DNA of 64,000 bases from Candidatus Woesearchaeota archaeon (GCA_016185705.1 JACPMZ010000010.1:913-64912), one strand, 5' to 3'; positions 12,423-34,323 are shown, counted from the stretch's first letter. Notes: generated by a model not told the origin, from the letters alone. Made by a program: numbers and translations.

Positions 12423-12567
12423 TATATAAAAAGTTTTCTGTTTTCCAGCGCATGCTTCGTTATTTCCAGGCTGCAGCTGTTATATTTTTTGCAGTATTCC
12501 CTGCATTGCTTCGCCCATTTTTCTTCCTTGTAGCGGAATCCGCATATGGGGCATTGGTATGTTTTCA
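12423..12567 (-). CDS. Mini zinc-ribbon protein (48 aa), paralog 2
   Basis: GTG start with RBS GAGGTGAT. (M)KTYQCPICGFRYKEEKWAKQCREYCKKYNSCSLEITKHALENRKLFI. Lies 5 nt downstream of the ccdA stop. Confidence 0.5.
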
Positions 12568-12572
12568 CGTTA

Positions 12573-13433
12573 TCACCTCGGGAAGAGCAGGATTACAAAC
12601 TGCTCAACGAATATTGACGACAGCAATAAGTAAATTCCAACCAGCAGCAGGACTACGCTGCTTATTTTTCTTATTTTCTGGGTTCGCGAGCTGAGTTCTG
12701 ATATCGCGCTTTGTGAGATGGTAGCGAGGAAGGACAGCAAAATCATCAGGGCTGCCATTGTGGCTGAGAACATTGCGTACGCCAGCAGCGCTGATAAAAA
12801 GCCGCCTGTGGCAAATGCGAAGACGGTAAGGATTGCGAGGATGGGTCCTGCGCATCCTATGCCTATGATGTTATAGCCGAAACCAAAGACGAAAAATGAC
12901 CTTGCGGGCGTTTTTCCCTGCAGTTTTGCCACGAACTGCGCCGCCTTATCAAAAGCAGCCGAGTGGAAGCCCTTTCCAAGCAGGGGCATTGCCCCGAAAG
13001 TTATCATCAGAATTCCAACTATGCCCCTGAATGCAAGCACGGAAGCGTTGGGGCTGTCTGTGGCAAGGGCAAAGGACTTGGCAAAGTTTTCTCCGAGCAG
13101 GCCTATCAGAGAACCAAAAAGCAGGTTGAAAGCCACTATTCCAGCAGCGGTTATAATGCCGTAATAAACAACTTGCGCTTTTTTCCGGTCAGCCCTCTTT
13201 GCTGTCAGGAACCTTGTGAGATATGCCGGAAGCACGCCAAATGAGCATGGGTTGAAGAAGGTTGCGATGCCCGCTGTGACTGCAACAAGCGCTATACCAA
13301 AGACAGCTGTTTCAGGCGCTATTTTTGTCATGAACAGGATGAAAGCGTAGTATCCTGCGCCAATTATGGCGATAGCGGCAGCTATAAGCAGAATAGCGTT
13401 GTTTTTTAGGTTTGCTTTTTTGTTTTTCCTCAT
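12573..13433 (-). CDS. ccdA: CcdA/DsbD-family thiol-disulfide transporter (cytochrome c biogenesis membrane protein)
   Basis: Polytopic membrane protein with the NPCSFGVLP and GIGCAGPIL conserved Cys motifs. Confidence 0.8.
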   Translation of the reverse strand: MRKNKKANLKNNAILLIAAAIAIIGAGYYAFILFMTKIAPETAVFGIALVAVTAGIATFFNPCSFGVLPAYLTRFLTAKRADRKKAQVVYYGIITAAGIVAFNLLFGSLIGLLGENFAKSFALATDSPNASVLAFRGIVGILMITFGAMPLLGKGFHSAAFDKAAQFVAKLQGKTPARSFFVFGFGYNIIGIGCAGPILAILTVFAFATGGFLSALLAYAMFSATMAALMILLSFLATISQSAISELSSRTQKIRKISSVVLLLVGIYLLLSSIFVEQFVILLFPR

Positions 13434-13434
13434 T

Positions 13435-13863
13435 TTAATCTCTTCGGAAACCTCCGGACTTGTATATTGAAAACACTAGCAGGGCGATTGCTGCTGACAG
13501 GAAAATCCAGCTGAAATAGCTTAGCGTGACAGTAACGCTTAAAGGCAGGAAGAATGCAATGGCAGGAATGCATGCCGGGCACGCTCCAAGCAGCACGCCA
13601 AAAATTGACGCAGACGCCCCGCCTGCAGGATTTACTTTGCATGTTTTGCATTGCTTGTTGTAAATGTATAAGACAGCAAAGCTGCCTGTCAGCACTGCCA
13701 GGATTGGGTAAAGGAAAAGCGTGTACGAAATGCCGGCCATCGTCTCAAACCAGATGTCAAACCCCCTCAATGGAATTGCCGGCCACAACAAGACTGCAAG
13801 AACAACAGCAGCGCCTATTAACGCAGCCCTTCCGTTTTTCCATGCCTTGATTAGCTTTATCAT
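13435..13863 (-). CDS. Small membrane protein with a loop Cys pair (CKTCKV) and CxxC in a TM helix (GACPACIPAIAFF); MerT/VKOR-like architecture, uncharacterised family
   Basis: 142 aa. Paralogs at 27589 (N-terminal domain), 31461 and 33793. Four-nt overlap with the upstream gene. Confidence 0.65.
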   Translation of the reverse strand: MIKLIKAWKNGRAALIGAAVVLAVLLWPAIPLRGFDIWFETMAGISYTLFLYPILAVLTGSFAVLYIYNKQCKTCKVNPAGGASASIFGVLLGACPACIPAIAFFLPLSVTVTLSYFSWIFLSAAIALLVFSIYKSGGFRRD

Positions 13864-14729
13864 CTGTAAATCACTTCTATATTTTCGCTGTCAAGCACTT
13901 CATGCTCTATATCTGACTCCTGTCCGTCTGCTGTAATCGTTCCGCCGCAGTAGCTTCCAAAATCTGTCACAATACACTCGCCTGCTTCCCACCCAAACGT
14001 CTCGAACAGGTACTTCAGCGTGACTCCTTTTGCATGAACATGCACTTCTTTTCCATCGCTGTCTTCAAAATGAACAAAAGAGCTTCTTAGCTGGTATTTG
14101 GAATCGGCAAAATCAACTTTGCTTCCTCCAAGGGTAACGCTTATGTTGGCGTGCTCATGAGTCGAACCTAATACTAGGTTGGCAGATTCGCCTCTGACAA
14201 TCAAATCCTCAAGCGTTTTCGTGTCTATTGGAAACCCGTTGTCCCTGTAAACAATCTTTCCATCAGGGTCTACTATTATGGTTGTGTCAAAACTTCTGAT
14301 GCTATACAATTGTGCAATGCTCCCGTCATCAAATCCCATAATCCAGTCATTCCTGCCGAACTGCTGCCTGAAACGCTCCAGGTCCTGCGCTGTTTCGCGC
14401 TGGTCAACGTCAATCTGCATGACAACCAAAGGGATGTGCGGAAAATTGTTCTGTGCGCGCTTTACATTGGCAGCTTCTATCTGGCACGGAACGCACCACG
14501 TGGCCATTGATGCGAATAAAACGTATTTTCCCCTGAAATCAGACAGCTTTACAACATTGCCATCAATTGTTGCAAGCGCAAAGTCCCTGGCAAGTTTGCC
14601 TTCCGCAATTCCCTCTTCGGCATTCAATCCGGTTTCGGGAGGGCTTTCCGCGTTTTTCTGCGCGATAAAAAATGCTGCAATCGCAAGAATCGCCAAAAAC
14701 CCTGTTATGAAATAGTTCCTTTTCATCAT
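13860..14729 (-). CDS. TlpA/ResA-like thioredoxin (WCVPC) fused to a novel His/Cys-rich extracytoplasmic domain
   Basis: N-terminal TM anchor, Trx domain, then a C-terminal domain (HEHAN...VHVHAKG...GECIVTDFGSYCGG) paralogous to 25009, 30707 and 32240. Confidence 0.7.
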   Translation of the reverse strand: MMKRNYFITGFLAILAIAAFFIAQKNAESPPETGLNAEEGIAEGKLARDFALATIDGNVVKLSDFRGKYVLFASMATWCVPCQIEAANVKRAQNNFPHIPLVVMQIDVDQRETAQDLERFRQQFGRNDWIMGFDDGSIAQLYSIRSFDTTIIVDPDGKIVYRDNGFPIDTKTLEDLIVRGESANLVLGSTHEHANISVTLGGSKVDFADSKYQLRSSFVHFEDSDGKEVHVHAKGVTLKYLFETFGWEAGECIVTDFGSYCGGTITADGQESDIEHEVLDSENIEVIYR

Positions 14730-14740
14730 TAGTTGGCTTT

Positions 14741-16147
14741 TTATTCAACACAGCATGCCATTTCGTTCAGATTCTGCGTGAAGCTCTGCGCAACCTTCTT
14801 AATCATCTCGCTCAGCGTCGGGAAGACGTGCACCGTGTCCTTGATGTCGTCAATCGTCATTTTGTTCCTGATGGCGTACGTTGCGAGCGTGATTATGTCG
14901 GCAGCCTGCGGCCCTGCAATCTGCACTCCCAAAACCCTTCGCGTCCTGTGTTCCAGGACCATCTTTATGATGCCTCTTGCGTCTTTAATGGCAAGGGCCT
15001 TCTCAACGTGGTCCAGCTTTATTGTTGAGCACATGCACGTTTTGTAGCGCTGCATGTATTCCGCTTCGGTTATCCCGACAGCAGCTGCTTCAGGGGAGGT
15101 AAAAACTGCATAGGGAACCTGGCGGTAGTTTATGCTTTTCTTTGCATTCTCAAACATGTTGAGCACGGCAAGATTGCCTTCCTTCGCTGCCGTGGTTTCC
15201 AGCGGCATCATGCCGGTAACGTCGCCGGCTGCAAAAATGTGCTGCCTGGAAGTCCTGAAATGCCTGTTCACTTTGACAAATCCCCGCTTGTCAAGCTTTA
15301 CTCCGGCGTTTTGCGCTTCAAGCTTTTTTGTGTGCGGCTGCAGCCCTGTTCCGAGAAACAGCGCTGCTGCTGAAAATGTGCGTTTCTTTCCTTTAACCAC
15401 GGCGGTGAGCTGCAATCCTGTTTTTGTTTTCTTGACTTCTTTTGCTTCAACTCCGGTAAGGATTTGTATGCCTTCTGCCTGCAGATGCCTTTGCACTTCT
15501 GCAGAAATGTCGGGGTCAAACTTCGGCAGCACCCTGTCAGAGCGCTGGAGTACAGTGGTTTTTATTCCGAAGTGGTGGAATATCTGGGAGAACTCCATGC
15601 CTTGCGGGCCCGCACCGAGTATGATAACTGACTTCGGCTTCTTTTTCAGCTCAAAAACGTTTTTGTTAGTAAGGTAAGCAATCTTTTCTATACCTTCAAT
15701 AGGCGGAACAGATGTTGAAGCTCCAGTTGCAATGAGAATGTAATCAGCGGAATATTCGCTGTCGCCAACAGAAACAGTATGCTCATCCACAAAACTTGCT
15801 TTTCCTTCCTTGTATCCAACGTGTTCCTGCTTTTTTATTACGTTACCATAATTTTTCTTTCTGAATCCTTCAATCATCTGTTTTGTTTCCTTTAGCGCCT
15901 CTACAAAATCAGCTGTGCCTTTTACTTTAACTGCCTTAAAGCTGCTGTGGGCAGGGTAGTAATACTCGCTGCCCTGGTGCAGCATGATTTTGGAAGGAAC
16001 GCAGCCGACATTGACGCACGTTCCGCCAAGGGGCAGTATTTTGGAATCGTTTATCATTAAAGTCTTTTTTCCCAGCAAATTTGCCCTGTTGGCAGCTGCA
16101 AATGCTGCAGCTCCCCCTCCCAGGATGATTAAGTCGTACTTCGTCAT
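14741..16147 (-). CDS. merA: Mercuric reductase MerA (no NmerA domain); class I pyridine nucleotide-disulfide oxidoreductase
   Basis: GGGAAAFAAA FAD motif, redox disulfide GTCVNVGCVPSK, and a C-terminal vicinal CC (EMACCVE). ATGA overlap with the upstream ArsR stop. The ORF track begins at 16168. Confidence 0.75.
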   Translation of the reverse strand: MTKYDLIILGGGAAAFAAANRANLLGKKTLMINDSKILPLGGTCVNVGCVPSKIMLHQGSEYYYPAHSSFKAVKVKGTADFVEALKETKQMIEGFRKKNYGNVIKKQEHVGYKEGKASFVDEHTVSVGDSEYSADYILIATGASTSVPPIEGIEKIAYLTNKNVFELKKKPKSVIILGAGPQGMEFSQIFHHFGIKTTVLQRSDRVLPKFDPDISAEVQRHLQAEGIQILTGVEAKEVKKTKTGLQLTAVVKGKKRTFSAAALFLGTGLQPHTKKLEAQNAGVKLDKRGFVKVNRHFRTSRQHIFAAGDVTGMMPLETTAAKEGNLAVLNMFENAKKSINYRQVPYAVFTSPEAAAVGITEAEYMQRYKTCMCSTIKLDHVEKALAIKDARGIIKMVLEHRTRRVLGVQIAGPQAADIITLATYAIRNKMTIDDIKDTVHVFPTLSEMIKKVAQSFTQNLNEMACCVE

Positions 16148-16473
16148 CTTTCCCTCCTTTTTATGCACCCAATGCAGTATTTTGAAGTATGCAGGTTGAT
16201 TAGCTTCATGAGCGGCTCTATGGTTTGCTTGTTAAGTCTGTACACTCTTTCCTTGCCGCTTGGTTTGACGCTGACAAAGCCGCAGCTTTTCAGCCTTGCT
16301 AAACTGTTTGAGATTGTGCTTTGGTCAGCGCCAACTGCTGCCGTTATTTCCGACACGTTCTTTGACTCTTTCAGCAGCGCATTCAGTATTTTGATGCGTG
16401 TTCTGTTTGAAAGCGTTGCCAGGAAATACTCATACGCCTCATCCGGAGTTGCCTGCTGCATAACATATTTCAT
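16144..16473 (-). CDS. ArsR/SmtB-family HTH regulator (archaeal MerR-like)
   Basis: wHTH with a C-terminal CIGC. Translationally coupled to merA. Confidence 0.7.
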   Translation of the reverse strand: MKYVMQQATPDEAYEYFLATLSNRTRIKILNALLKESKNVSEITAAVGADQSTISNSLARLKSCGFVSVKPSGKERVYRLNKQTIEPLMKLINLHTSKYCIGCIKRRER

Positions 16474-21070: not shown

Positions 21071-21202
21071 ATGATGAAAGAGGTGGTGCGCTTGGCCTGT
21101 GAGGTTTGCATTGAGGGAGAGAAGGGCAGAATCTGCATTGACATCTGTAAATTCATGGAGACAGGCAGGATGGAGTGCAGGTTCAGGGAAAGGCTACTTT
21201 GA
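21071..21202 (+). CDS. Small Cys-rich protein (43 aa), hypothetical
   Basis: [43 protein letters not shown]. Weak RBS. Overlaps the copA 3' end. Confidence 0.25.
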
Positions 21203-23788
21203 TGCGTCAAAGTAGCCTTTTGCCCTGTAACTTTTCATGAGCAGCGAGTTGCTCAGCACGCTCACTGAGCTGAATGCCATGGCAATCCCTGCTATTATCG
21301 GATTCAGCAAAAAGCCTGTGAACGGGAACAGGATGCCTGCTGCTATCGGGATTCCTGCGGTGTTGTAAAAGAATGCCCAGAAGAGGTTCTGCTTGATTTT
21401 TTTCAGGGCGTAATTGCTCAAATCAATGGCTGTAACTACGTCTCTTAAGTCGTTTTTCACCAAAACAACATCGCCTGTCTCTATCGCCACGTCTGTGCCG
21501 GAGCCGATAGCTATTCCAATATCTGCCTGCGCAAGCGCAGGCGCATCATTTATGCCGTCTCCAACCATTGCCACTTTCAGCCCTTTTTCCTGCAGCTTCT
21601 TTATCTCGTTTTCCTTCTCTTCCGGAAGCACTTCCGCAAGCACTTCGTCTATTCCGAGCTGTCTTGCAATGGCTGCTGCTGTTTTCCTGTTATCGCCTGT
21701 TATCATCATTACTTTTTTTCCCATTTTGTGCAGCTGCTCAACTGCTTCTTTTGAATAGTCTTTTATCGTATCAGCTACAGCTATCACTCCGGATATTTTC
21801 TTCCCTGTGGCTACGAGCATTACTGTTTTGCCTGCTTTCTCAAGCTTTTGTATGGAGCTCTCAGCGTTTTTTGTGTCAATGCTGAACTGTTCCATCAGCT
21901 TTCTGTTGCCTACGAGAATTTTTTTCCCGTTTGAGACTGCTGTCACGCCTTTTCCGGTAACAGAGTTGAAGTTTGTGATTCGCAGCAGCTTTAGCTCTTT
22001 CTTTTCAGCGGCTTTTACAATAGCCGTGCTTAACGGGTGCTCTGATTTTTTTTCAACAGCTGCTGCCAGTTTCAGTATTTCATTCCTGCTGCCGTTGAAT
22101 GCTGCCACTTCAGTTACTTCAGGCGTCCCTTTTGTAAGCGTCCCTGTCTTGTCAAAGATTATTGTGTCAACTTTTCCTGTTTTCTGCAGCGCCTCTGCAG
22201 TCTTGAAAAGTATCCCGTTTTGCGCTCCTATCCCTGAGCCGACCATTATTGCTGTTGGCGTTGCCAGGCCAAGGGCGCATGGGCAGGCAATTATAAGAAC
22301 TGCAATAAATATCGTAAGGGCAAAAACAAAGCCAAAGCCGAGCGCATACCATAATAAGAACGAAATTATGCCGATAACGACCACTGCCGGGACAAAGTAT
22401 GAGGAGATTGCGTCTGCAAGTTTCTGGATGGGCGCTTTGCTTCCCTGCGCCTCCTCGACAAGCTTTATTATCTGGGCAAGGACAGTGTCTTTTCCTACTT
22501 TCGTTGCCCTGAATGTAAAGCTGCCTGTCTTGTTTATTGATGCTCCGACAACGCTGCTGCCTTTTGCTTTCTCTACAGGGATGCTCTCCCCTGTAACCAT
22601 TGACTCGTCAACAGAGGAGTGGCCTTCAACAATAACTCCGTCAACAGGGATTTTCTGGCCTGGCTTGACTATAACTGCATCCCCCACAGCTACTTCATCA
22701 ACATTTACTTCAACCTCTTTTCCTTTCCTCAGAACAATTGCCTTTTTTGCCTGCAGTCCGAGAAGCTTCTTTATCGCTTCTGAAGTTCTGCCCCTTGCAA
22801 CTGCTTCCAGGTATCTGCCAAGCAAAATGAACATTATCAGCAGCCCTGCAATTTCGTAATAGAGGCTGCTGTGGCCGTAGTCTGCATTGCCGCTCCATAT
22901 GATGGCTGACACGGCAAGGCTGTAAAGGTATGCTGCTCCTGTTCCGGCTGCTATGAGCGTGTCCATGTTTGCAGTTCTGGTGCGTATAACTGCGGAAATC
23001 CCCTTGGTGAAGAATTCGTAGCCTGCAAGCATTATCGGGGTTGTGAGGAGGAACTGGATTAAGGCAATGTTTTCCTCAGCAAATGCAGGTATTGGCATGC
23101 CGAATGCTGAGCCCATGGCAAAGTAAAGCAGCGGCAGCCCCAAAACAGCAGAAATCAGAAGCTTGATTTTCAGTATCCTTGTCTCTTTTTCTCTGGCTGC
23201 TTTTTCAGCATCCAAATCCTCGCTGAATTTTTCCGGCTCATAGCCCGCATTTCTTATCGTTTTCATTATTTTTTCAAGCGTGACTTGTTTTGGCTCATAA
23301 TTCACTACAGCCCGTTCAATGGCAAAACTGGCGTCCACTTTCAGCACTCCAGGCTGCTTTTTCAGGGCTGATTCAACGATTCCTGCGCAGTGCTGCGAGG
23401 ACATGCCTCTCACTTTCAGGGCAACTTCAGCGGCTTTTCCGGCAGGCGCTTTTATGACTTCGTAGCCGCTTTTCTTCACCGCATCCTCCAGCGCCGCATC
23501 GCTGACTTTTGAGCCGTCGTATTCAACAGAAGCTTTTTCAGAGGCATAATTTACGCTGGCGCTGATGACTCCGGGAATTTTTTTAATCTCTTTCTCAATT
23601 TTCACAGCGCAGGAAGCGCAGTGCATTCCCTTCAGGGGCAGTATTTTTTTGGTTGCCGCCCTTTTTCCAAGAAAGCTGTCGTAGCACTGTTTGCTGCAAA
23701 AAAAGTATTTCTTCCCGTTCTTTGCGGCAGAAAACCTGGCTTTTTTATCGTCAACTTCCATTCCGCACACAGGGTCTTTCGCGCTCAT
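21194..23788 (-). CDS. copA: Copper-translocating P1B-type ATPase with N-terminal YHS/TRASH and two HMA domains
   Basis: DPVCGMEV...C..C (YHS/TRASH), [12 protein letters not shown] and [11 protein letters not shown] (HMA), CPC, DKTGT, GDGIND. Confidence 0.9.
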
Positions 23789-25019: not shown

Positions 25020-25926
25020 TCAGTTCACCCCTTGCAGCAGCCAGCCGGTATGTTTCGCATATGTTTTCTGTAGAATCCTTTTCCTCACCAAATTCCACAA
25101 TTATGCAGTCTCCTGGAGGAACGTTTGGCTCCGGGGATAAAACATAATTTTCAAAATCATCCGGTTTTATCTGCTCGTAAACCCATTTTTTCCGCTGGTC
25201 AGGATTCTTGACCTTGTACAGGAATACCTGTAGTTTCCCCTGCTTTCCGTCGCACAAGTCGCCATTTGCCATCTCAACCAGCCCTTCATTTGTAGGAATT
25301 GACATGGAATCAGCATTAAGTTCAGCTCCGATAACATGGAAAAAATTGTGCAGGGCAACATCTCCATCATCAACAACAACGCCTTCCACGTGAATGCGGT
25401 TATCGCCGTGCTCATGGAAAGTGGAAGATCCTACTCTGTTCTCAAATCCGTGAGGGTCGGTCAAATCAAGCTTTTCTCCGCAATTGTATATTTCAAAATC
25501 CGCATGCCAATGGACCGGCCCTTTGGTCTGTGAAGCCAGGTTAAGATAGATGGTGGAGCCTGCTGTGTAAGCTGCTGCTGATACAGTAACAAGCACTATC
25601 AAAGAGAACAGAACCATCTTTATGGAGTTGCTGTTCTTCATAGTCTTAGTGCCGAAAGTGGCCATTAATATCAGAATCGCAATAACTGACAAGGCATATG
25701 CCACGACCTTTAGCGTGCTTAGCTTGACAGATTCCTCCAGTCCTGCAGATACAGACTCCTCAGCATGCTCTTCATCTGAGTGTTCATCTCCCTCCTGATG
25801 TTCGGAAACCGCTTCATCGCTGTGCGCTGATGCTGCGATTAATACCATCAGGAAAATAAGCGGAAAAAGCAGTATTTTTATGAAGCTGAAATGGTTCATT
25901 GCCGCAGCAGAATTTCCATACACCAC
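25009..25926 (-). CDS. Membrane-anchored protein with an acidic His-rich stretch plus the novel His/Cys extracytoplasmic domain
   Basis: SDEAVSEHQEGDEHSDEEHAEE, then VHWHADFEIY...FHEHGD...C...C. Overlaps ccdA2 by 11 nt. Confidence 0.65.
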   Translation of the reverse strand: MVYGNSAAAMNHFSFIKILLFPLIFLMVLIAASAHSDEAVSEHQEGDEHSDEEHAEESVSAGLEESVKLSTLKVVAYALSVIAILILMATFGTKTMKNSNSIKMVLFSLIVLVTVSAAAYTAGSTIYLNLASQTKGPVHWHADFEIYNCGEKLDLTDPHGFENRVGSSTFHEHGDNRIHVEGVVVDDGDVALHNFFHVIGAELNADSMSIPTNEGLVEMANGDLCDGKQGKLQVFLYKVKNPDQRKKWVYEQIKPDDFENYVLSPEPNVPPGDCIIVEFGEEKDSTENICETYRLAAARGELSGS

Positions 25927-26387: not shown

Positions 26388-27143
26388 TCATCGGTCATGC
26401 TTTCCGAATTTTTCTATTTTTCTTTTCGCTGACTTAAGGTGCCTGCCGGTCTTTTGGGCTGCAACTGCGTACTTGTCAGCTTCCCTCTCCTCTTTTTCCA
26501 GAGATTCAGAAGCGCTTATGAACATTGACAAAGGCGTGAACATCCTGAGCAGGTTTGCCGAAAATTTCCAGAAGTAAGCCCTGCTTCTGTGATGGCTCAG
26601 CTCGTGCAGCAGCACTGCCTCAACCTCCTTTTTAGAAAGAGCTTCCGAAAGCCCTGCGGACACGAATATGGCGGGCTTCAGGTTTGTTATGGAATACGCC
26701 ACAGGCATTGCCTCATTCAGCGAATAAACTTTGGGCTCCTTTATCTTAAGCTCTTTAGACTTCTCCGCAACCAGCTGCTTCATAAAGCCAGCATCCACAA
26801 CTTTGCTCCTGCTTGACCAGTTGTACAGGAACGGCAGAGCAGCAAAGCCCAGAGCTGCTGCTGCCAGGCCTGCAAGGGGCGTGAAAAGCATGAACATCTT
26901 TGGGCTGCAGCTCATGACAGGCATCAGGCACTTCCATGTGAATGCTGAAAACACAAACGGAAAAATCAGAAAAATTACATGCGCTGCAAGAAAGTTTATC
27001 TTAAGCCGTATGCTTTCCGAATTTTTGAAAAGAGCATAAAACAGCCCGGAAGCGAGCAGGGAAAAAGCGAGCGCGTAAAAGCTGATTGGGTTGTGAATGA
27101 GGTTGTTGAAGTACACGTTCCACATAAGCAGCTGCTCAATCAT
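26388..27143 (-). CDS. BlaR1/M56-family membrane metalloprotease sensor
   Basis: Four TM segments and an HELSHH zinc motif. Downstream of the BlaI-like gene with a 4-nt overlap. Confidence 0.65.
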   Translation of the reverse strand: MIEQLLMWNVYFNNLIHNPISFYALAFSLLASGLFYALFKNSESIRLKINFLAAHVIFLIFPFVFSAFTWKCLMPVMSCSPKMFMLFTPLAGLAAAALGFAALPFLYNWSSRSKVVDAGFMKQLVAEKSKELKIKEPKVYSLNEAMPVAYSITNLKPAIFVSAGLSEALSKKEVEAVLLHELSHHRSRAYFWKFSANLLRMFTPLSMFISASESLEKEEREADKYAVAAQKTGRHLKSAKRKIEKFGKHDR

Positions 27144-27502
27144 TTTTTTGCCCTGCCTTCCAGCGCTTCGTTAAAGTACACTATTGCTTTGGAGCCGAAC
27201 TTGTCAACCAAGGAATCAACCACTTTCTCCACAGCGTTTCTTTCAAACATTTCCCTGTCCTTCTCCAGCGCGTACACAAACCGGATTCCTCCTCTGGCAG
27301 TTTCAACTTCCCTTTTGACAAGCCCTTTCCTGAACAGCCTGTCCATAATCACCGAAACGCTGCTCTTGGAAGCTCGCCCCCTGACTATCATGTATATGTC
27401 CTTTGCCCGATACTTTTTGCCGGGCTTCAGAGCCATTATTATTCGGCTTTCCAGCGGGCTTAAAGAATCAGCCACTTCAGCCACGCCTTTCATAAGCCGC
27501 AT
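27140..27502 (-). CDS. BlaI/MecI/CopY-family transcriptional repressor
   Basis: 120-aa wHTH penicillinase-repressor family. Confidence 0.65.
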   Translation of the reverse strand: MRLMKGVAEVADSLSPLESRIIMALKPGKKYRAKDIYMIVRGRASKSSVSVIMDRLFRKGLVKREVETARGGIRFVYALEKDREMFERNAVEKVVDSLVDKFGSKAIVYFNEALEGRAKK

Positions 27503-27588: not shown

Positions 27589-28806
27589 ATGATTGGACTT
27601 GGCGAAGAAAAGAAGGAAAACATGCTCTCAACTTCTGTAAAAATCCTGAAGCAGAAGGAAAGCAGAAAGGCCCTTCTGGTTAGTGCAGCTGTTTTTCTGA
27701 TACTTTACAGCTTTGTGTATGGCTTTTGGAAAATACCGGTGATAGATTTCGGAATCAACAGGCTTTCCCAAATAGGATTTCCCGATTACCTGTTTGCCAT
27801 TGCTGTTGCCGCACTTTCCTCAGTTTTTGTGTCGCTGTTCCTGTACGAGAGAAGAAGCAGGCTTGCTTCAGCATCGTCCATCGGCGGAATGGGCGGGGGC
27901 TTTGCCGGATTTGTTGGCGCAGTGTGCCCTGTATGCCAAAGCATAGGAGTGGTTGCTTTTGGAAGCACCCTGCTTAACATTCCCACAGCTTTTTTAACTC
28001 CTTACCTTGGCTTCCTGAAATTTGCCGCCATCGGACTGCTTGGACTGTCTGTTTACCTGAAGGCGGACAGCATCCACACTAAAAAGTGCCGCGCGTGCAA
28101 AGTGAAAATCACCGGCAGTTCACACAAAAAAGAGCCATTCCTGCTGAGAAACAGGTTTGCTTTCGGAGCAATAGTGGCGCTGGTGCTGCTTGCAGGACTG
28201 AACAACATGCTCATACCAAAGGCATTCGCAGCATCGCCATCCGGCAGCTGGCAGACGGCAAGCCTCGGAGCGTTTGAATACGGACCGAAAACAACGCTGA
28301 AGCCCATGCCCCTCGCACATGAAGAGCAGCCCGCAATACCCGGCTACAGGTCAAAGGTCAAGCCGCTGCCAACTATAAGCGAGCTGCAAATGAAGCCTTT
28401 AACAGGCGATGCTGCGCAGGACGTGCTCAACAACATAGTCCCCGTAGGAACGCCGTGGTACGGGCTGCAGGCAGGAGTGAGCTTTGACGACCCCATCGCA
28501 GCCCAAAACCTGTGGGCAAAAGGCAGAGCAATACAGCTAAGCCCTGAAGAGGAGCAGCGCTGGAACAGGATTGCGAACTCATTTACATGCGATTACTGCT
28601 GCGGCAGCCCACAAAACCCGACCATCATAACCAGATGCGGCTGCGCACACTCGTCAGCCGCTCAGGGCATGGCAAGATGGTTTATCAAAAACTACGGCGG
28701 CAGCTATTCCGACGAGGAAATATACGGGGAAATGGCAAGATGGTATGCCCTCTGGTATCCAGGCCCCACAATCAAGAGGATACTGCAGGAAGCGCAGGCA
28801 ACATGA
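27589..28806 (+). CDS. Membrane protein: N-terminal CxxC-in-TM module (GAVCPVCQ, CRACKV) fused to a C-terminal Cys-cluster domain (CDYCCG...CGCAH)
   Basis: The N-terminal 170 aa are paralogous to 13435..13863. Confidence 0.6.
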   Translation: MIGLGEEKKENMLSTSVKILKQKESRKALLVSAAVFLILYSFVYGFWKIPVIDFGINRLSQIGFPDYLFAIAVAALSSVFVSLFLYERRSRLASASSIGGMGGGFAGFVGAVCPVCQSIGVVAFGSTLLNIPTAFLTPYLGFLKFAAIGLLGLSVYLKADSIHTKKCRACKVKITGSSHKKEPFLLRNRFAFGAIVALVLLAGLNNMLIPKAFAASPSGSWQTASLGAFEYGPKTTLKPMPLAHEEQPAIPGYRSKVKPLPTISELQMKPLTGDAAQDVLNNIVPVGTPWYGLQAGVSFDDPIAAQNLWAKGRAIQLSPEEEQRWNRIANSFTCDYCCGSPQNPTIITRCGCAHSSAAQGMARWFIKNYGGSYSDEEIYGEMARWYALWYPGPTIKRILQEAQAT

Positions 28807-29035: not shown

Positions 29036-30160
29036 TTGAAACAATCCAACAAAACAGAATCAGCACTGTACGCAGCGCTTGCACTGGCCGCGGCAATATC
29101 GCTCCTGAATGTTTTTATCCTGCAAATCCGTGCAGAGCAGGTCAGCGAAGCAAAGGAAGCTGCGGAAGAGCTGGCAAGGCCGGCAGACATAGAAGCGACT
29201 AAAATACTGCTTTCCGGCTGCGAGGAATGCTTTGACATTCAAAATGCCTTGGAAGAGCTTAAGAAGCAAAACGTCAACCTGCTGACTGAAAAAAGCCTTT
29301 TCATTGAAGATGAAGAAGCTAAAGAGCTCATACGCCGCTACGGGATTGAAAAAATCCCTGCGTTGGTAATCTCAGGCGAGGTAAACAAGACAAGCCAGCT
29401 AGCCGCCTATTTTGAAAAAACAGGCGTTATCTCAGGCGACGGAACAGCAGTGTACACGAACATAAAACCGCCATACTACAACACAACTGCCAAAAAAGTG
29501 GTTGGAAAAGTAAGCGTTCTGAACATCGTTGACTCCCAATGCGAAACATGCGCGTCATTAAGCCAGGTAAAAGAATCGCTGAAACAGGCAGGGGTTGTCA
29601 TAACAGAAGAAAAGACTTATGAGTATTCCTCGCCGGAAGGGCAGGAGCTTATTGACAGGTTCAACGTGAGCAGAGCGCCTGCGCTTCTGATATCAGCAGA
29701 AGTCAACCATTACGCCGGAGTGGGAAGCCAGTTGCAGCAGCTGGCAGAAGAGAAAAGCGGCTTTTACGCCCTTCACTCCACCTCTCCGCCTTACAGAGAT
29801 CTGCAGCAGGACAGAATCGTTGGAGAGGTAACGCTAATCCTGCTGAAAGACGGTTCCTGCGCAGAATGCTACGATGTGAAAATCAACAAGCAGATATTAC
29901 AAGGGTTTGGAGTTGCGATAACAGAAGAGGAGACCTATGACGTTTCGTCAGAAGAAGGGCAGGCTTTAATCGCAAAATACGGCATAGAAAAAGCGCCTGT
30001 AATACTCATGTCGCCGGACGCTGCGCATTATCCGGCGCTTGCGCAGGCATGGAAAAGCGTCGGCACAGTGGAAAGTGACGGGTGGCATGTTATGAGAAAG
30101 CCGGAAACTCTGGGAACTTACAAGGAGCTGGAAAGCGGAAAAGCAGTGCAGGCAGGTTAG
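29036..30160 (+). CDS. Membrane-anchored protein with three tandem thioredoxin-fold repeats (CEEC, CETC, CAEC; cis-Pro IPA/APA)
   Basis: Internal ~100-aa triplication. TTG start with GGTGG RBS. Confidence 0.65.
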   Translation: MKQSNKTESALYAALALAAAISLLNVFILQIRAEQVSEAKEAAEELARPADIEATKILLSGCEECFDIQNALEELKKQNVNLLTEKSLFIEDEEAKELIRRYGIEKIPALVISGEVNKTSQLAAYFEKTGVISGDGTAVYTNIKPPYYNTTAKKVVGKVSVLNIVDSQCETCASLSQVKESLKQAGVVITEEKTYEYSSPEGQELIDRFNVSRAPALLISAEVNHYAGVGSQLQQLAEEKSGFYALHSTSPPYRDLQQDRIVGEVTLILLKDGSCAECYDVKINKQILQGFGVAITEEETYDVSSEEGQALIAKYGIEKAPVILMSPDAAHYPALAQAWKSVGTVESDGWHVMRKPETLGTYKELESGKAVQAG

Positions 30161-30215: not shown

Positions 30216-30710
30216 TTGTTTCATATTGATGGAAAAATGAATGAAAGCGACAAAAAGAAATCCGCAGTTGTAGCAGCGTTTGCGCTGTTCCTTGCAGCCG
30301 GCATTGCCTACATTGCGTTCACAAACGAGGAAACGCAGCCGGATTACGAAACTCCTCCGCCTGAAAAAGTGGTTGAGCAGTATTTCACTGCATGGAACGA
30401 CAAAAACTATCCTGACATGTATGCAGCCATATCAGACGGCTTCAAGAAGATAGAGCCTACCGCGAATGATTTAAGGGCGTTTAAAAGCTATGCCGAATCC
30501 CAGAAAATAAGCAATGCCAGAGTGCTGTCAGTGAATGAAGTTTCAAACGACGGCAAAACAGCTGCCGTCAGCTACTCTGTTGAATTTCTGCTTGCAGGCG
30601 GAACAAAAAGCAGATTTGACGGGACTTTTACATTGAAATACAGGGAAGGGGATGTAATTCCGGGATGGAAGCTGATACACCCTTACGGCGAAAACATAGA
30701 CGCTTCATGA
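30216..30710 (+). CDS. Membrane-anchored hypothetical protein (NTF2-like?)
   Basis: 164 aa. ATGATGA coupling to the next gene. Confidence 0.45.
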   Translation: MFHIDGKMNESDKKKSAVVAAFALFLAAGIAYIAFTNEETQPDYETPPPEKVVEQYFTAWNDKNYPDMYAAISDGFKKIEPTANDLRAFKSYAESQKISNARVLSVNEVSNDGKTAAVSYSVEFLLAGGTKSRFDGTFTLKYREGDVIPGWKLIHPYGENIDAS

Positions 30711-31477
30711 TGACTCCAAACATTCGCAATGCACGGCAGAAGAATAAACCGAAAACTGGTAACGCTGAAAAAATCGTGACATCATTTATCGTATTGGCTG
30801 TGCTCGCAGCTGCACTCTCATTTTTTTACGTTTCAAAATCGCTGTTTTTTCCAGGCGAAGGGGGCGGAGGTCAGCAGCAGACAAGCCATTTCTCATCCGC
30901 GGGCTTTACCGCTTTTGACGTTGAACTCGCCAAAAAGCTCATGGACAAAGACAGCGACGGCAAATGCGACAGCTGCGGGATGGACTTGGAATTCTGCATA
31001 CAAAGCGGGCAGCTGCAGTGCAGCATGGACCCGAAATCAACCATTGGCGTTTTGGACACCACAAAGGAAAAGCACCACTACCACGCAGATTTCAAAGTGT
31101 ACATTAGCGGCGAAGAAATTGACTTCAGCCAGCAGAAGTATTTTGTCAAAAGCAGGTTCATCCATGTTGAGAACGACGTTCAGGGCGATTCAGGAAAGGT
31201 TCTGCACATGCACGCCTCCGGAGTCCCCTTGTGGGTGTTCTTTGAAAGCGTTGGGATGAAATTCAACGAAAGCTGCTTTGTCACGGACGGCAGGGAAGCG
31301 CACTGCAACAACAATGGCAGAACATTAAGCTTTTACACAAACGGAAAACAAAATCCCGAATACGAAAGCTACGTTTTTCAGGATGGCGACAGGATTCTGA
31401 TAAGCTATGGAAGCGAAAATGGGGAAGAAATAAAAAAGCAGCTTAGTTCAATAACAGATTTTGCAAAAAACCATTAG
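30707..31477 (+). CDS. Membrane-anchored protein with a TRASH-like CDSCGMD motif plus the novel His/Cys extracytoplasmic domain
   Basis: HHYHADFKVYISGEE...HMHASG...C...C...DGDRILISYG. Paralog of 13860-C-terminus, 25009 and 32240. Confidence 0.65.
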   Translation: MMTPNIRNARQKNKPKTGNAEKIVTSFIVLAVLAAALSFFYVSKSLFFPGEGGGGQQQTSHFSSAGFTAFDVELAKKLMDKDSDGKCDSCGMDLEFCIQSGQLQCSMDPKSTIGVLDTTKEKHHYHADFKVYISGEEIDFSQQKYFVKSRFIHVENDVQGDSGKVLHMHASGVPLWVFFESVGMKFNESCFVTDGREAHCNNNGRTLSFYTNGKQNPEYESYVFQDGDRILISYGSENGEEIKKQLSSITDFAKNH

Positions 31478-31943
31478 TAAAATGATTAATGCGAAAAAGC
31501 TTGTAACAGAAAAGGCAGCCGCGCTCTCAACCTCCCTGTCAGGAGCGCTGAGCTTCATGGGCGGCTACCAGGTGTGCCACAACATCTGCCTTGGAATAAT
31601 AGCCCTTCTGTCAATAGCAGGCATAACGCTGGTTGGCATGCCCCTCCTGTTCCTTACCAGGGTAGCAGTACCGCTTTGGACAGCCGCTTTTGCGCTGTTC
31701 CTCATAACCCTGGCCATTAGCTTCATAAAGAAGTGCATTCCTAAAAAGATTATTGTATTGAACGCCGGAATCCTGATTGCAGGAGTCCCGTTTGCCCCTG
31801 TACAGCCCTACGCCCCGCTCTTATGGATAACAGGCGGAAGCATGGCAGCTTTAAGCATTCTTTTTTACATCCGGGCAAAGGTTAACAAAAGCCGCGCAGG
31901 TAAGCGGAAGGGGAAAACATTCAGCAGCAGCATTGGCACTTGA
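31461..31943 (+). CDS. Small polytopic membrane protein with CxxxC in a TM helix (QVCHNICLG)
   Basis: 160 aa. Overlaps the upstream gene by 17 nt. Confidence 0.55.
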   Translation: MQKTISKMINAKKLVTEKAAALSTSLSGALSFMGGYQVCHNICLGIIALLSIAGITLVGMPLLFLTRVAVPLWTAAFALFLITLAISFIKKCIPKKIIVLNAGILIAGVPFAPVQPYAPLLWITGGSMAALSILFYIRAKVNKSRAGKRKGKTFSSSIGT

Positions 31944-32098: not shown

Positions 32099-32200
32099 AT
32101 GGTCGCCTGCACGGACTGCGGTAAGGAATTTGATTCCAGAATGAGCATGGAGCAGCACTATGCTGCGAAGCATGCAAAGCAGAAGCCTGTTTCCCCATAA
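32099..32200 (+). CDS. C2H2 zinc-finger mini-protein (33 aa), possibly the N-terminus of the downstream ORF
   Basis: MVACTDCGKEFDSRMSMEQHYAAKHAKQKPVSP. TATA-like AAAGTATTTAA about 27 nt upstream. In frame with 32240..32692 across a single TAA. Confidence 0.5.
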   Translation: MVACTDCGKEFDSRMSMEQHYAAKHAKQKPVSP

Positions 32201-32239
32201 TCTAAGAAGTCAAAAAAGAAGCCGATTATTGCAGCGCTT

Positions 32240-32692
32240 TTGCTGATAATTGTTTTGGGTTCAGGATATTTCATGTTTTTTAACAGTTCAGGGGAAAAGC
32301 CTGTTATTGAGCAAGCTGATGTTGCAGATGTTAATCTTGATGAAGTTCCAAAAGGCCCTATTCACTGGCATCCTGAGCTTACTGTCATTATTAAGGGAGA
32401 GGTTCAGAACATTCCAAGAAATCTGGGTCTTGGAAGTGTGCACAAGCCGGTTCACACGCATGATGACGTTCCAGTGCTTCACTATGAGAACAGCAGGCCG
32501 ACTGCTGAAACTGTCACGCTTGGCTACTTTTTCAGCGATGTGTGGAGAAAAACTTTTAACAGCCAATGCATTTTCAGTTACTGCAGCGGAGCAGAAGGCA
32601 ATCTGTCAATGACGGTTAATGGCAAGCCCAATTTTCAGTTTGATAATTACATCCCGAAAGACGGCGATAAGATAGTGATTATGTTTGGATAG
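32240..32692 (+). CDS. Novel His/Cys extracytoplasmic domain protein (fourth paralog)
   Basis: IHWHPELTVIIKGE...VHTHDD...C..C...DGDKIVIMFG. No canonical start upstream of its TM anchor except by reading through the TAA at 32198. Confidence 0.6.
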   Translation: MLIIVLGSGYFMFFNSSGEKPVIEQADVADVNLDEVPKGPIHWHPELTVIIKGEVQNIPRNLGLGSVHKPVHTHDDVPVLHYENSRPTAETVTLGYFFSDVWRKTFNSQCIFSYCSGAEGNLSMTVNGKPNFQFDNYIPKDGDKIVIMFG

Positions 32693-32777
32693 GCTGTGCT
32701 GATAAGCTTCCCCAACGTGTTGTTAAGTTTTCGGCTGTTACCAAATACTTTAAGCAAACGATAATGCGCAGTAGTAG

Positions 32778-32815
32778 CAGATGCAGCTCAAAGCCAAAAC
32801 ACTGCCGCCCGCAGA
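32778..32815. repeat. 35-bp direct repeat GCTCAAAGCCAAAACACTGCCGCCCGCAGATT, copy 1 (70 bp upstream of the dsbA-like gene)
   Basis: Second copy at 34360..34396 with one mismatch. Confidence 0.8.
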
Positions 32816-32883
32816 TTTAACAGAACGCATTTACGGAAAACTTTTTAAAGAAAAAGCGCATCGCGCACAAAGGGTGATAACTG

Positions 32884-33663
32884 ATGATAGAGCACGACAA
32901 GATGCACCACAAGGCTAAGGGTGAAACTGAAAGTATTGTAAAGATTAAGAGCGAGGAGGAAGAGACTTTCAAAATTAAGAAAACAACGTTGTGGCAGGGA
33001 CTCTCAGCAGTTTTGGGGGTGCTTCTTGCGGTATCCATTTTTACAGGCGGTTTTGGTTATGGCAATGGCTCTGAAGGCAGCGTCGCTGTCAGGGAGCCTG
33101 TTGCAGCTCAGCCAAGCGCTCCATCTCCCACTCCGACTGTTGATGTCCAGATTGGCGATGCCCCTGCTCTTGGTGACGAGAACGCTCCTGTGACATTGAT
33201 TGAATTTTCAGACTTCCAGTGCCCGTTTTGCGGCAGGCACTTTTCGCAGACTCATTCGCAGATAAAACAGCAGTACATTGACACTGGAAAAGTAAGGTTT
33301 GTTTACAAGCATTTCCCGCTTGATAGCATTCACCCGCAGGCAACGCCTGCAGCTCTTGCCTCTGAATGCGCCCGCGAGCAGGGCAAGTTCTGGGAATACC
33401 ATGACCTGATTTTCCAGAACCAGCAGTCTCTTGGAGATGCAAGCTACAAGCAGTGGGCATCCCAGCTCAGCCTTGACACAAACAAGTTTAACGGCTGCTA
33501 TGACAGCCAGAAATACATTGAGCGTGTAAGGAGCGACCTTCAGCAGGGCACTGATGCAGGCGTTCGCGGCACTCCGGGCTTCCTGCTGAATGGCGTAGCC
33601 ATAAGCGGCGCTCAGCCGTTTGATGTGTTCCAGCAGGCAATTGAGGCAGCGCTTTCGGGCTGA
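32884..33663 (+). CDS. DsbA-family thiol-disulfide oxidoreductase (CPFC)
   Basis: TM anchor, FSDFQCPFCGRHF, and a cis-Pro GTPGF. Confidence 0.8.
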   Translation: MIEHDKMHHKAKGETESIVKIKSEEEETFKIKKTTLWQGLSAVLGVLLAVSIFTGGFGYGNGSEGSVAVREPVAAQPSAPSPTPTVDVQIGDAPALGDENAPVTLIEFSDFQCPFCGRHFSQTHSQIKQQYIDTGKVRFVYKHFPLDSIHPQATPAALASECAREQGKFWEYHDLIFQNQQSLGDASYKQWASQLSLDTNKFNGCYDSQKYIERVRSDLQQGTDAGVRGTPGFLLNGVAISGAQPFDVFQQAIEAALSG

Positions 33664-33792
33664 TTGGGTGTATGGCAACAGTTTTTCCTGTTGCCCGGCT
33701 CATTTTTTATTCTTTCTCCGTGGAGAGAACAGAAAGTGGGCAGCGCAGTAACTGGCTTACGTTACCGTTTATCAGATTCAGAGTCGTTCAAA

Positions 33793-34323
33793 ATGGTGGG
33801 CAGCGCTGATTTCAGGCTTCGTTGGAACTTCATTAAAGGAGTGTTTGCCAGCCGGGCTTATGCGCTGCTTTTTGCTGTTTTGCTGGCTGCTTACCTTGGC
33901 GTCAACTTCTGGCTTAACAGGTTTTATGAAACTTTGCCAAATCTTCTCAGCTTCCGGCTTTCAGTGGTTGTGCCTTATTTGGCAGGGACATTTCTCGTAG
34001 GGCTGCTTGTTGCCCTTAACCTTACCTTGATAATTTACAAGCTGAGGCAGGTCATGATGCTGGGGAAAGAGGTTGGCGTAACCGCAGCCGGAGCTTTTGG
34101 GGGAGTGCTTGGAGGAGCCTGCCCTGGCTGCTTTGTCGGCGTTTTTCCTGCTGTGGCAGGGCTGTTTGGCGTTACTGCAACGCTGAGCTCTCTTCCTTTT
34201 CTTGGTTTTGAGATTCTGATTCCAGCGCTGCTGATAGCTCTGGTTGCGCTTTACCTTGTTGCAAAGCCGCTTACCTGTCAGCCGGAAACCTCAGAGAAAA
34301 ATGAACAGCACAGAAAGAATTGA
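33793..34323 (+). CDS. Small membrane protein with CPGC in a TM helix (GACPGCFVGVFPAVAG)
   Basis: Paralog of the CxxC-TM family. ATG at 33793. The ORF track extends to 33664, but a terminator-like hairpin plus T-tract lies at 33681..33716. Confidence 0.6.
   Translation: MVGSADFRLRWNFIKGVFASRAYALLFAVLLAAYLGVNFWLNRFYETLPNLLSFRLSVVVPYLAGTFLVGLLVALNLTLIIYKLRQVMMLGKEVGVTAAGAFGGVLGGACPGCFVGVFPAVAGLFGVTATLSSLPFLGFEILIPALLIALVALYLVAKPLTCQPETSEKNEQHRKN

Follow-up and report, generated by a model that had tools for sequence, protein, structure and literature searches.

A His/Cys beta-grasp domain and a family of CPxC membrane proteins in a thiol-redox, mercury and copper gene island of a Woesearchaeota archaeon: possible roles in envelope metal handling

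Several described systems handle thiols together with copper or mercury at the cell envelope. In the CcdA-TlpA-Sco/PCuAC route a membrane CcdA and an extracytoplasmic TlpA-like reductase serve a copper carrier (the thioredoxin-fold Sco, or PCuAC) whose target is a CuA cupredoxin. In Salmonella, according to two reports (PMC4546943, PMC3322552), the periplasmic copper binder CueP is kept reduced by Dsb/Scs proteins that are fed by a DsbD-family protein, near copper export. Mercury determinants of the MerT/MerP/MerC/MerF kind combine an ArsR-type regulator, MerA, a transmembrane (TM) Cys pair, a cytoplasmic Cys pair and an outer CxxC protein. Finally, most DPANN archaea of oxygen-deficient zones have a 'nosZ-like' CuA protein, which does not complement a nosZ mutant and whose function is open (PMC10936187). 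Here we describe a stretch of 64,000 nucleotides from a Candidatus Woesearchaeota archaeon (GCA_016185705.1, JACPMZ010000010.1:913-64912; the whole stretch is called the window below) in which two protein families without a name occur among thioredoxin-fold, mer and copper genes: an extracytoplasmic His/Cys domain of about 110 amino acids present in four copies, and small membrane proteins with CPxC inside a TM helix (the CPxC or TMCxxC family). A sequence-only reading of this DNA had joined both families and CcdA into one recurrent module and proposed for it an undescribed archaeal metal-redox system.

In our opinion the island is best understood as several conserved cassettes for envelope thiol-redox and thiophilic-metal (copper and mercury) handling in Woesearchaeota, with a redox-serviced metal-binding domain, whose metal is probably copper, and a mer-linked, MerT-like CPxC protein. 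We give this reading a probability of about 0.5. The systems appear to resemble the known envelope redox and metal systems, but they are made of other protein families and have an unusual set of partners.

Profile hidden Markov models (HMMs) were built for both families with every window sequence left out, the one for the domain from 116 homologues, and were run against the open reading frames (ORFs) of the window. Exactly four ORFs match the domain model, which is the number that the sequence-only reading had counted, and since the model is free of window sequences the four-copy paralogy is not due to chance. None of the four copies has a Pfam, NCBIfam or PDB sequence match, and a PDB profile search with the domain returned nothing relevant. 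The homologue P0001 has zero Pfam matches at E ≤ 1, and when 120 homologues were scanned at the same threshold, neither DUF4430 nor the copper-chaperone families (Sco, PCuAC, CopC, HMA) were among the 25 most often matched families. Literature searches on CcdA, thioredoxin, DsbA/VKOR, copper and cupredoxin in DPANN archaea and in the Candidate Phyla Radiation (CPR, or Patescibacteria), and on ATP-cone together with CcdA, turned up neither of the two families. The domain is thus uncharacterised, as had been claimed, and its family is new: the sequence libraries give no match, and it can be placed at the level of fold only, as SLBB-like. It is not a small family; with clustering at 50% identity, an exhaustive profile search gave 2,400 clusters when the threshold was E ≤ 1e-3, and 1,019 when it was E ≤ 1e-10.

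Residue conservation was taken from 150 representatives of the 50%-identity clusters and is given in type-C numbering (the subtypes are introduced below). H31, H33, H61 and H70 are conserved at 99%, C104 at 97% and C99 at 75%, while N116, Y126 and D132 exceed 90%. Positions 63 and 72 are occupied by H/E in 81 sequences, E/H in 44, H/H in 19 and D/H in 4; at least one His is present in 149 of the 150, and E/E or D/E never occurs. Hence of the two HxH motifs and the Cys pair ascribed to each copy, the first HxH stands, together with two further invariant His, and this conserved set is kept in all four window copies; the second HxH is not conserved as such, owing to the His/Glu swap, and in type A the first Cys of the pair is missing, other Cys being invariant instead. 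The swap argues that residues 63 and 72 share one coordination sphere.

An AlphaFold2 model of the type-C domain has a beta-grasp fold with good confidence (predicted local distance difference test, pLDDT, 90.2; predicted TM-score 0.82). The Cys pair follows the helix of this fold, and HxH, Hx(H/E) and Hx(E/H) lie on three neighbouring strands of the model. Each of the three ligand pairs (31/33, 61/63 and 70/72) has i/i+2 spacing within a segment modelled as a strand, so that both members of a pair should face the same side. We infer from register and covariation that the pairs would form one metal-binding patch of five His and one carboxylate, or of six His. By hydropathy, on which all TM segments and topologies given here are based, the domain is extracytoplasmic in every architecture.

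The closest folds are the transcobalamin beta-domain and the DUF4430-like structure 3u7z, that is, beta-grasps of the SLBB type. Our domain shares the fold class of that superfamily (PMC1796856) and has an inserted beta-hairpin (residues about 60-73), whose position relative to the B12-binding hairpin of transcobalamin we infer. There is no detectable sequence relationship, and the signature of four His, the His/Glu alternation and Cys has not been described for SLBB proteins (PMC1796856). It may be asked whether the ligand of the domain is a soluble organic molecule, for instance a corrinoid, in which case its cassette would scavenge that ligand and the ATP-cone protein described below would link it to nucleotide metabolism. 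The ATP-cone is otherwise found on ribonucleotide reductases, and the protein has a weak NrdR match; the nearest folds include cobalamin-binding domains, and prokaryotic transcobalamin-like SLBB proteins have been proposed as B12 scavengers (PMC1796856). However, the domain does not belong to DUF4430 by sequence, its invariant His, Glu and Cys and its fusions to thioredoxin, DsbA and cupredoxin point to metal and thiol chemistry, and no Cbi/Btu transport genes are linked in the type-A loci. We therefore find an organic ligand extremely doubtful.

Three subtypes of domain protein can be distinguished. Type A (about 280 amino acids) consists of a signal peptide, an acidic/His-rich segment, two TM helices and the domain, which here carries four invariant Cys and two HxHxD motifs (HWHAD and HEHGDxRxHxE are invariant). 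In 63 of 81 type-A sequences (from among the window protein at 25009-25926 and its homologues P0003-P0120) a small-x-small motif stands directly before a His, and the acidic/His-rich stretch follows. As the motif is like that of signal peptidase, the N-terminus of the mature protein may be this His; such a terminus may be likened to the histidine-brace copper sites of CopC, YcnI and lytic polysaccharide monooxygenases. Type B has one TM helix, a DxDxDGxCDxCGM...C...C segment and the domain. The segment (residues about 78-106 of the protein at 30707-31477) is extracytoplasmic and resembles a thrombospondin-type-3 calcium loop with four Cys and a YHS/TRASH-like CxxCGM. This is the only additional CxxCGM that we found; it may be the source of the mini-TRASH peptide that had been listed for the island, of which we found no separate instance.

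Type C is usually a cytoplasmic C2H2 zinc finger followed by one TM helix and the domain. In the window, the ATG at 32099 opens a zinc-finger frame which is interrupted by an in-frame TAA (32198-32200), after which the TM helix and the domain follow. Relatives carry one intact gene at this place; in the window the interruption may mean a pseudogene, a true split into two genes or a mistake in the assembly. Of the earlier claim that every copy is membrane-anchored, three cases hold and the fourth, ORF 32240, holds only partially, because of this stop codon.

The architecture of type C invites the idea that the domain is an extracytoplasmic sensor, signalling metal or redox state through the zinc finger or through the neighbouring BlaI/M56 genes, which adjoin the arrays in the window and in L077 (loci and homologous proteins are given by our labels, L and P). 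A single finger of 30 amino acids is no known output domain, though; types A and B and the fusions to TlpA, DsbA and cupredoxin have no signalling domain at all, and type-A loci contain no linked histidine kinase or sigma/anti-sigma genes. Consequently we give very little credence to a sensor. The BlaI/CopY-type repressor and M56 pair adjoins thioredoxin and CcdA-type genes also on a Rhodococcus plasmid (L085) and in the Woesearchaeota locus L077, a recurrence which may point to one regulatory unit, used in common, for copper or for thiol stress in the envelope.

Independent fusions of the domain also occur. Redoxin/TlpA is fused to it in three clusters besides the window's own case, DsbA in one, and a CuA cupredoxin in three (P0063, P0235, P0281). 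In P0271, a protein of 686 amino acids from a Nitrosopumilaceae archaeon, it is joined to a YncE-like beta-propeller; the family thus extends past DPANN and CPR into an ammonia-oxidising, copper-dependent lineage. In the window, the fusion protein has one N-terminal TM helix, AhpC-TSA/Redoxin Pfam matches at residues 43-174 with ResA/TlpA matches in NCBIfam, and the His domain at residues 193-253.

Gene linkage may be taken up with type A. A mixed-subtype alignment (A4) was too divergent for scanning loci, so one genome per GTDB species was scanned with the type-A alignment, and the genome-wide counts cover type A. Matches were found in 321 genomes, and the neighbourhood counts refer to the best 80 loci, which are mostly from DPANN archaea (Woese-, Nano-, Aenigmat-, Micr- and Parvarchaeota) and include ten from CPR/Patescibacteria and two labelled Gammaproteobacteria. 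A homologue of CcdA2, the DsbD_TM protein of the window, lies directly 3' of type A on the same strand in 80 out of 80 loci, with a median overlap of 11 nucleotides, and an ATP-cone gene comes after CcdA2 in 56 of the 74 loci with room downstream (loci L002-L081). When all ORFs of these loci were clustered, type A, CcdA2 and the ATP-cone protein were the only conserved families: there is no conserved thioredoxin-fold gene, CPxC protein, cupredoxin, histidine kinase, sigma/anti-sigma factor or Cbi/Btu gene. The next commonest neighbours are CorA-like genes (12 loci) and CopA (11-12 loci). In 12 of the 80 loci CopA is found no more than 8 kb from type A, where about 1.6% would be expected by our own rough estimate for one copA per genome of 1 Mb, and in several CPR loci it is immediately upstream. 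If the domain binds a metal, the context of CopA, CsoR and cupredoxin would make copper the most likely one.

The two Cys of CcdA2 (C25 in NPC, C148 in LPC) are invariant in 68 homologues. By analogy of motif it is predicted to transfer electrons to an outer partner, and the sole conserved outer partner is the type-A beta-grasp protein. PDB sequence searches with CcdA2 and the ATP-cone protein gave nothing useful. ATP-cone domains elsewhere regulate ribonucleotide reductases. The present protein is not NrdR, given that it has no zinc ribbon and scores 22.9 bits against a cutoff of 124.65; it has no conserved Cys and a basic N-terminus. In three CPR loci (L046, L076, L080) a gene directly after CcdA2 gave 'MerA' matches, which we reject, as it has neither the MerA active-site motif nor a C-terminal CC. 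It encodes a pyridine-nucleotide disulfide oxidoreductase, which could donate cytoplasmic electrons to CcdA2.

The same cassette can be explained in another way, namely that type A and CcdA2 form a two-component metal or metalloid transporter, in which the ectodomain captures the ion, the membrane Cys of CcdA2 move it and the ATP-cone regulates, without any thiol-disulfide electron transfer. Indeed the pair is obligate and no thioredoxin-fold partner is present in the cassette; the best NCBIfam match of CcdA2 is the arsenical efflux permease ArsG (E 2.6e-7, below cutoff), with a match to SfLAP as well; type A has its acidic/His-rich segment; CopA is immediately upstream in several CPR loci; and CcdA-domain proteins of actinomycete mer operons are annotated as mercury transporters (PMC12195606). 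On the other hand, a pair of invariant Pro-Cys motifs is characteristic of electron transfer by DsbD/CcdA, the four invariant Cys of type A could be a redox substrate, and the ArsG score is far below the family cutoff. A transporter is in our view quite improbable.

Compared with the CcdA-TlpA-Sco/PCuAC route, which likewise has a membrane CcdA, a TlpA-like reductase and a CuA target, the carrier here would be a beta-grasp protein without a Pfam match to Sco or PCuAC; type A pairs with CcdA directly, with no thioredoxin-fold intermediary, and the hosts generally lack haem-copper oxidases (PMC7507113). The Cys pair and His of the carrier suggest redox-gated copper in both. With the CueP-DsbC/ScsBC system the logic of a redox-serviced copper binder would be similar, while there is no sequence or top-fold similarity, the ligands are rich in His and not in Cys, and the phyla are others.

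Types B and C occur in a different setting. Type C is found with DsbA, a CuA cupredoxin and DoxX/MauE in the window and in L001, L073, L153 and L154, and in L155 it adjoins a CsoR-like gene and a P-type ATPase. Type B is part of an array of 27589-like, triple-thioredoxin, NTF2-like, type-B and small TM genes in the window, L003 and L158, and is beside YHS-CopA in L157; the NTF2-like gene and homologues of 31461 hold the same positions in L003 and L158. The pair of cupredoxin and DoxX recurs in L023, L098, L153 and L154. In L154 (8422-10879) two HTTM (vitamin-K-carboxylase-like) proteins, each after a gene of about 170 codons, stand between DsbA and cupredoxin-DoxX in the type-C neighbourhood.

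The cupredoxin of the window (34580) is secreted and CuA-only. It has the full CuA spacing H-x34-C-x3-C-x3-H-x2-M, and the COX2 model gives it 45.6 bits (cutoff 22); in NCBIfam it matches best the CuA domains of NosZ and CoxB. It is of the kind called 'nosZ-like' in DPANN; the His/Cys domain does not appear in that work (PMC10936187), and here it neighbours the cupredoxin, while three clusters have it fused to one. Among single-cell genomes, 0.6% of those from Patescibacteria and 0% of those from DPANN encode oxygen reductases (PMC7507113). As they are almost absent from these superphyla, the cupredoxin is not part of a standard oxidase.

It is here that a catalytic role has to be weighed. The domain might be a metal centre with a (di)copper site which oxidises its own Cys pair and so regenerates DsbA without quinones, or which, fed by CuA, reduces O2, superoxide or N2O. 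A site of five to six His/Glu ligands conserved at 99% goes beyond that of a typical chaperone and recalls Cu,Zn superoxide dismutase or type-3 copper sites. The fusions to CuA domains and to DsbA, and the recurrent array of type C, DsbA, CPxC, cupredoxin and DoxX, fit such a centre, and so do the near absence of oxygen reductases from these lineages (PMC7507113) and the fact that the 'nosZ-like' protein has no known catalytic partner (PMC10936187). Nevertheless, most members of the family, including all of type A, are without a nearby cupredoxin; the partner of type A is a CcdA-type protein, and such proteins normally operate reductively; and at least one locus with the system also encodes VKOR. 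We regard catalysis as unlikely. Its most specific version, that the domain is a new copper redox centre which together with DsbA, CPxC, CuA cupredoxin and DoxX disposes of the electrons of disulfide formation independently of quinones, or reduces O2 or N2O at the surface, is a long shot.

The CPxC family is the second main component. Its model matches three window proteins, those at 13435, 27589 (N-terminus) and 33664/33793, and the second of these has 27% identity to the first over 144 amino acids (E 8e-5). A fourth member had been proposed, ORF 31461; it has no similarity to the 13435 protein and no match to the model. Homologues of the 13435 protein number 114; they come from DPANN and CPR (Woyke-, Lloyd- and Kerfeldbacteria, Saccharibacteria), and none has a Pfam domain. 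GACPxCxP in TM3 is invariant, and the family consensus has a vicinal CC in the loop between TM2 and TM3, which is rich in Lys, so that the Cys pair of the loop should be cytoplasmic. This pair is not common to the window proteins, as had been assumed: it lies between TM2 and TM3 in 13435 (CKTC) and after TM4 in 27589 (CRAC; CPVC lies within a TM helix), and 33793 has none. The C-terminal half of the 27589 protein (28201-28806) is a Cys-rich ectodomain (CDYCCG...CGCAHS) with no Pfam, NCBIfam or PDB match; parts of it are separate genes in L001, and genes of about 235 codons in L157 and L158 resemble further cases by appearance.

The CPxC proteins have no Pfam match at E ≤ 0.01 and no NCBIfam match at E ≤ 0.1, and hence none to MerT, MerC, MerE or MerF. 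Of the two functions that had been suggested for these proteins, membership in VKOR/DsbB has neither sequence nor fold support, there being no family match and, in the fold search, generic helix bundles only. A DsbA-like gene is indeed directly followed by a small 4-TM CxxC protein (33793; L001, L030, L073), as it might be by DsbB or VKOR, but the CxxC of CPxC proteins lies within a TM helix, and they show no second Cys pair on the outer side. The other suggestion, MerT-like, fits the mer-linked subtype only.

For that subtype the evidence comes from gene neighbourhoods, the linkage counts being drawn from 67 metagenome loci. Upstream sequence is sufficient in 38 of them, and in 36 of these a TlpA-like gene immediately precedes CPxC, mostly overlapping it by 4 nucleotides. 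Of the 21 CPxC loci that span 4 kb or more, 12 include MerA, 3 a CcdA1-like gene and 2 CopA, and the MerA ORFs have CVNVGCVPSK and a C-terminal KLSCC. In two CPR genomes ArsR, MerA, Redoxin and CPxC form one cluster. The window MerA scores 492 bits with TIGR02053 (cutoff 454), carries GGTCVNVGCVPSK (CVNVGC) and a C-terminal CCVE, and its best plasmid matches are annotated merA. CcdA1, the last gene of this operon, is CcdA-like by tblastn (23-35% identity to annotated CcdA, best E 6e-9) and by both Cys motifs, and matches nothing in Pfam (E ≤ 0.01) or NCBIfam; of the two CcdA neighbours proposed earlier, CcdA2 is therefore a family member, and CcdA1 is CcdA-like by these signs only.

The 13435 protein thus combines a TM Cys pair, a cytoplasmic Cys pair and a merA operon, as mer transporters do; 33793 does not. 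In common with MerT/MerP/MerC/MerF determinants there are also the ArsR-type regulator, a genuine MerA and an outer CxxC protein. The differences are that CPxC has four TM helices and GACPxCxP, and that the outer partner is a TlpA-like thioredoxin instead of the HMA-fold MerP. By analogy, the most likely role of the mer-linked CPxC is that of a MerT-like relay. Hg(II) would move from the CxxC of the outer TlpA to the CPxC in the membrane, from there to the cytoplasmic Cys pair and finally to the CC at the C-terminus of MerA, and CcdA1 would probably keep TlpA reduced. As far as annotation goes there is a precedent: mer operons of actinomycetes carry TrxA/CcdA-domain proteins that are annotated 'mercury transporter' (PMC12195606). 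A Rhodococcus plasmid merA locus which we examined has neither a thioredoxin nor a CcdA gene. The comparison with actinomycetes is with these annotated proteins (PMC12195606) and with the operon of Streptomyces lividans.

In about 25 metagenome loci (among L090-L152) the first CPxC gene is followed by a second paralogue of about 165-175 amino acids, which at several of these loci stands directly before MerA. The arrangement suggests that the membrane unit is heteromeric, and in the window CcdA1 holds that position. The archaeal and CPR proteins are 59-61% identical (13435-13863 against P0141; the type-A consensus, A5, against L035), and a glutamate dehydrogenase gene is near the mer cassette both in the window (18791-20110) and in a Woykebacteria genome (L082). 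The identities across domains together with the shared neighbour suggest gene transfer between DPANN and CPR.

The other two window members of the family have other neighbours. The 33793 gene follows DsbA. So do its homologues in L030, L001 and L073, in the last two of which type C comes next; the CPxC half of 27589 lies ahead of the triple thioredoxin, likewise in L003, L077, L157 and L158.

What became of the proposal of one module should be said plainly. The domain is extracytoplasmic, has a pattern of ligands like that of a metal site and is linked to TlpA, DsbA, CcdA and CuA cupredoxin by adjacency and fusion, in agreement with the sequence-only reading. A single unit of domain, CxxC-TM protein and CcdA does not exist, and the separate subfamilies each have an obligate partner of their own: type A and CcdA2 form their constant pair without CPxC, and among the 67 CPxC loci no TlpA bears the His domain, while a His-domain gene is nearby in only two. 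For the same reason the fusion of TlpA to the domain had to be dropped as a hallmark of the mer cassette, though similar fusions occur elsewhere. The link to mercury holds for the TlpA-CPxC pair and not for the His domain in general. Nor is the system specific to archaea, since the same cassettes occur in CPR/Patescibacteria; cassettes shared by DPANN and CPR should replace the single archaeal module. No well-characterised family with a non-metal function matches the domain, and adjacency is conserved in other genomes.

For the domain itself, metal binding, the identity of the metal, the direction of transfer and redox gating are to be deduced from this pattern. The state of its Cys would be set by thioredoxin-fold proteins (TlpA, DsbA) or by a CcdA-type membrane protein; it might then serve as a redox-gated metal carrier at the cell surface in the manner of Sco or CueP, and might take up or hand on copper, for instance between CopA and the stand-alone CuA cupredoxin.

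Several observations weigh against this interpretation. The clustering of His is read from strand register and covariation only. Five His and a carboxylate would be unusual for a Cu(I) chaperone and would suit Cu(II), Zn, Ni, Fe or a catalytic centre. CopA is absent from 68 of the 80 type-A loci and cupredoxin fusions are few, so that the link to copper is contextual. With ArsG as its best NCBIfam match, CcdA2 may be a permease and not an electron conduit, and the ATP-cone partner is explained neither by our reading nor by its rivals. As to CPxC, its model is of moderate confidence (pLDDT 72) and matched nothing specific; the paralogues adjoining DsbA or the triple thioredoxin have no link to MerA, 33793 has no Cys pair on the cytoplasmic side, and a single function may not suit the three proteins.

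The gene map was made from the ORF listing and from Pfam and NCBIfam scans of the window proteins (Table 1). It bears out the presence of MerA, ArsR, YHS-containing CopA and a CuA cupredoxin, by family models and ligand spacing, as well as the thioredoxin-fold flanks (TlpA/Redoxin, triple thioredoxin, DsbA and a glutaredoxin, by Pfam). A first operon on the minus strand has the order ArsR-MerA-TlpA-CPxC-CcdA1, with junctions that overlap or are 1-11 nucleotides apart; the window holds two ArsR genes according to Pfam. A second group on the same strand comprises the type-A protein (305 amino acids), the DsbD_TM protein, the ATP-cone protein and CopA. The plus strand is one co-directional array from the 405-residue membrane protein through triple thioredoxin, NTF2-like, type B (256 amino acids), 3-TM, split type C, DsbA, 4-TM CPxC and CuA cupredoxin to DoxX, and the BlaI/M56 pair is divergent from it.

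Table 1. Genes of the island, with positions counted from the first letter of the window
Feature	Positions	Strand	Evidence
CcdA-like 8-TM protein (CcdA1), last gene of the mer-type operon	12573..13433	-	tblastn to annotated CcdA genes; NPC and GCAGP motifs; 8 hydrophobic segments
4-TM CPxC membrane protein (TMCxxC family), 142 aa; CPAC in TM3, CKTC in TM2-TM3 loop	13435..13863	-	HMM E 7.5e-60
Membrane-anchored TlpA/ResA-like thioredoxin (WCVPC) fused to His/Cys beta-grasp copy 1 (about 13863-14177)	13860..14729	-	Pfam, NCBIfam; HMM E 2e-8 (C-terminal half)
MerA core, mercuric reductase, no NmerA domain	14741..16168	-	TIGR02053
ArsR-family regulator heading the mer-type operon; overlaps MerA start	16144..16473	-	HTH_5 E 2.4e-13
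CopA Cu(I) P1B-ATPase, YHS and two HMA domains	21194..23788	-	Pfam; TIGR01511 644 bits vs cutoff 397
Stand-alone ATP-cone protein, third gene of the type-A cassette	24011..24307	-	PF03477 39.6 bits vs cutoff 25.8
CcdA/DsbD_TM-family membrane protein (CcdA2), two invariant PC-motif Cys	24309..25019	-	DsbD_TM 29.9 bits vs cutoff 27.1
Type-A His/Cys beta-grasp protein (copy 2): signal peptide, acidic/His-rich segment, 2 TM, domain	25009..25926	-	HMM E 7e-66; 3 hydrophobic segments
BlaI/CopY-type repressor (27140-27502) and M56/M48 membrane protease (26388-27143)	26388..27502	-	Pfam
5-TM protein, 405 aa: TMCxxC-family N-terminal half and Cys-rich ectodomain	27589..28806	+	HMM E 4.8e-5
Membrane-anchored protein with three thioredoxin-like repeats (CEEC, CETC, CAEC)	29036..30160	+	Thioredoxin_3 and Glutaredoxin matches
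Membrane-anchored NTF2/SnoaL-like protein	30216..30710	+	weak SnoaL_2, MecA_N, DUF4829 matches
Type-B His/Cys beta-grasp protein (copy 3): TM, DxDxDGxCDxCGM 4-Cys segment, domain	30707..31477	+	HMM E 1e-30; = P0002; one TM
3-TM protein adjoining type B, outside the TMCxxC family	31461..31943	+	no HMM match
Type-C His/Cys beta-grasp gene (copy 4), split by TAA; ORF 32240-32692 = TM and domain	32099..32692	+	HMM E 6e-30
Membrane-anchored DsbA-like oxidoreductase	32884..33663	+	Thioredoxin_4 E 3e-35; DSBA
4-TM CPxC protein (GACPGC), DsbA-adjacent TMCxxC subtype; ORF open from 33664	33793..34323	+	HMM E 1.6e-4
Stand-alone CuA-type cupredoxin ('nosZ-like' of DPANN)	34580..35083	+	Cupredoxin_1, COX2
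DoxX/MauE-family membrane protein, overlaps cupredoxin stop	35080..35526	+	DoxX E 1.5e-9

Two sizeable families without a match in the Pfam, NCBIfam and PDB sequence libraries searched occupy a central place in how ultra-small archaea and bacteria, the least understood of their kind, handle redox and metals at the envelope. To our knowledge, type A and CcdA2 would be the first case of a CcdA-family protein whose sole conserved outer partner does not have a thioredoxin fold. The TlpA/CPxC pair is a candidate for a new route of mercury uptake in the widespread mer operons of CPR and DPANN, and the fusions to CuA cupredoxins offer a concrete partner for the 'nosZ-like' protein of DPANN archaea. 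If the domain were a copper redox centre after all, it would serve DPANN and CPR organisms without a respiratory chain, and would be the missing catalytic partner of that CuA protein.

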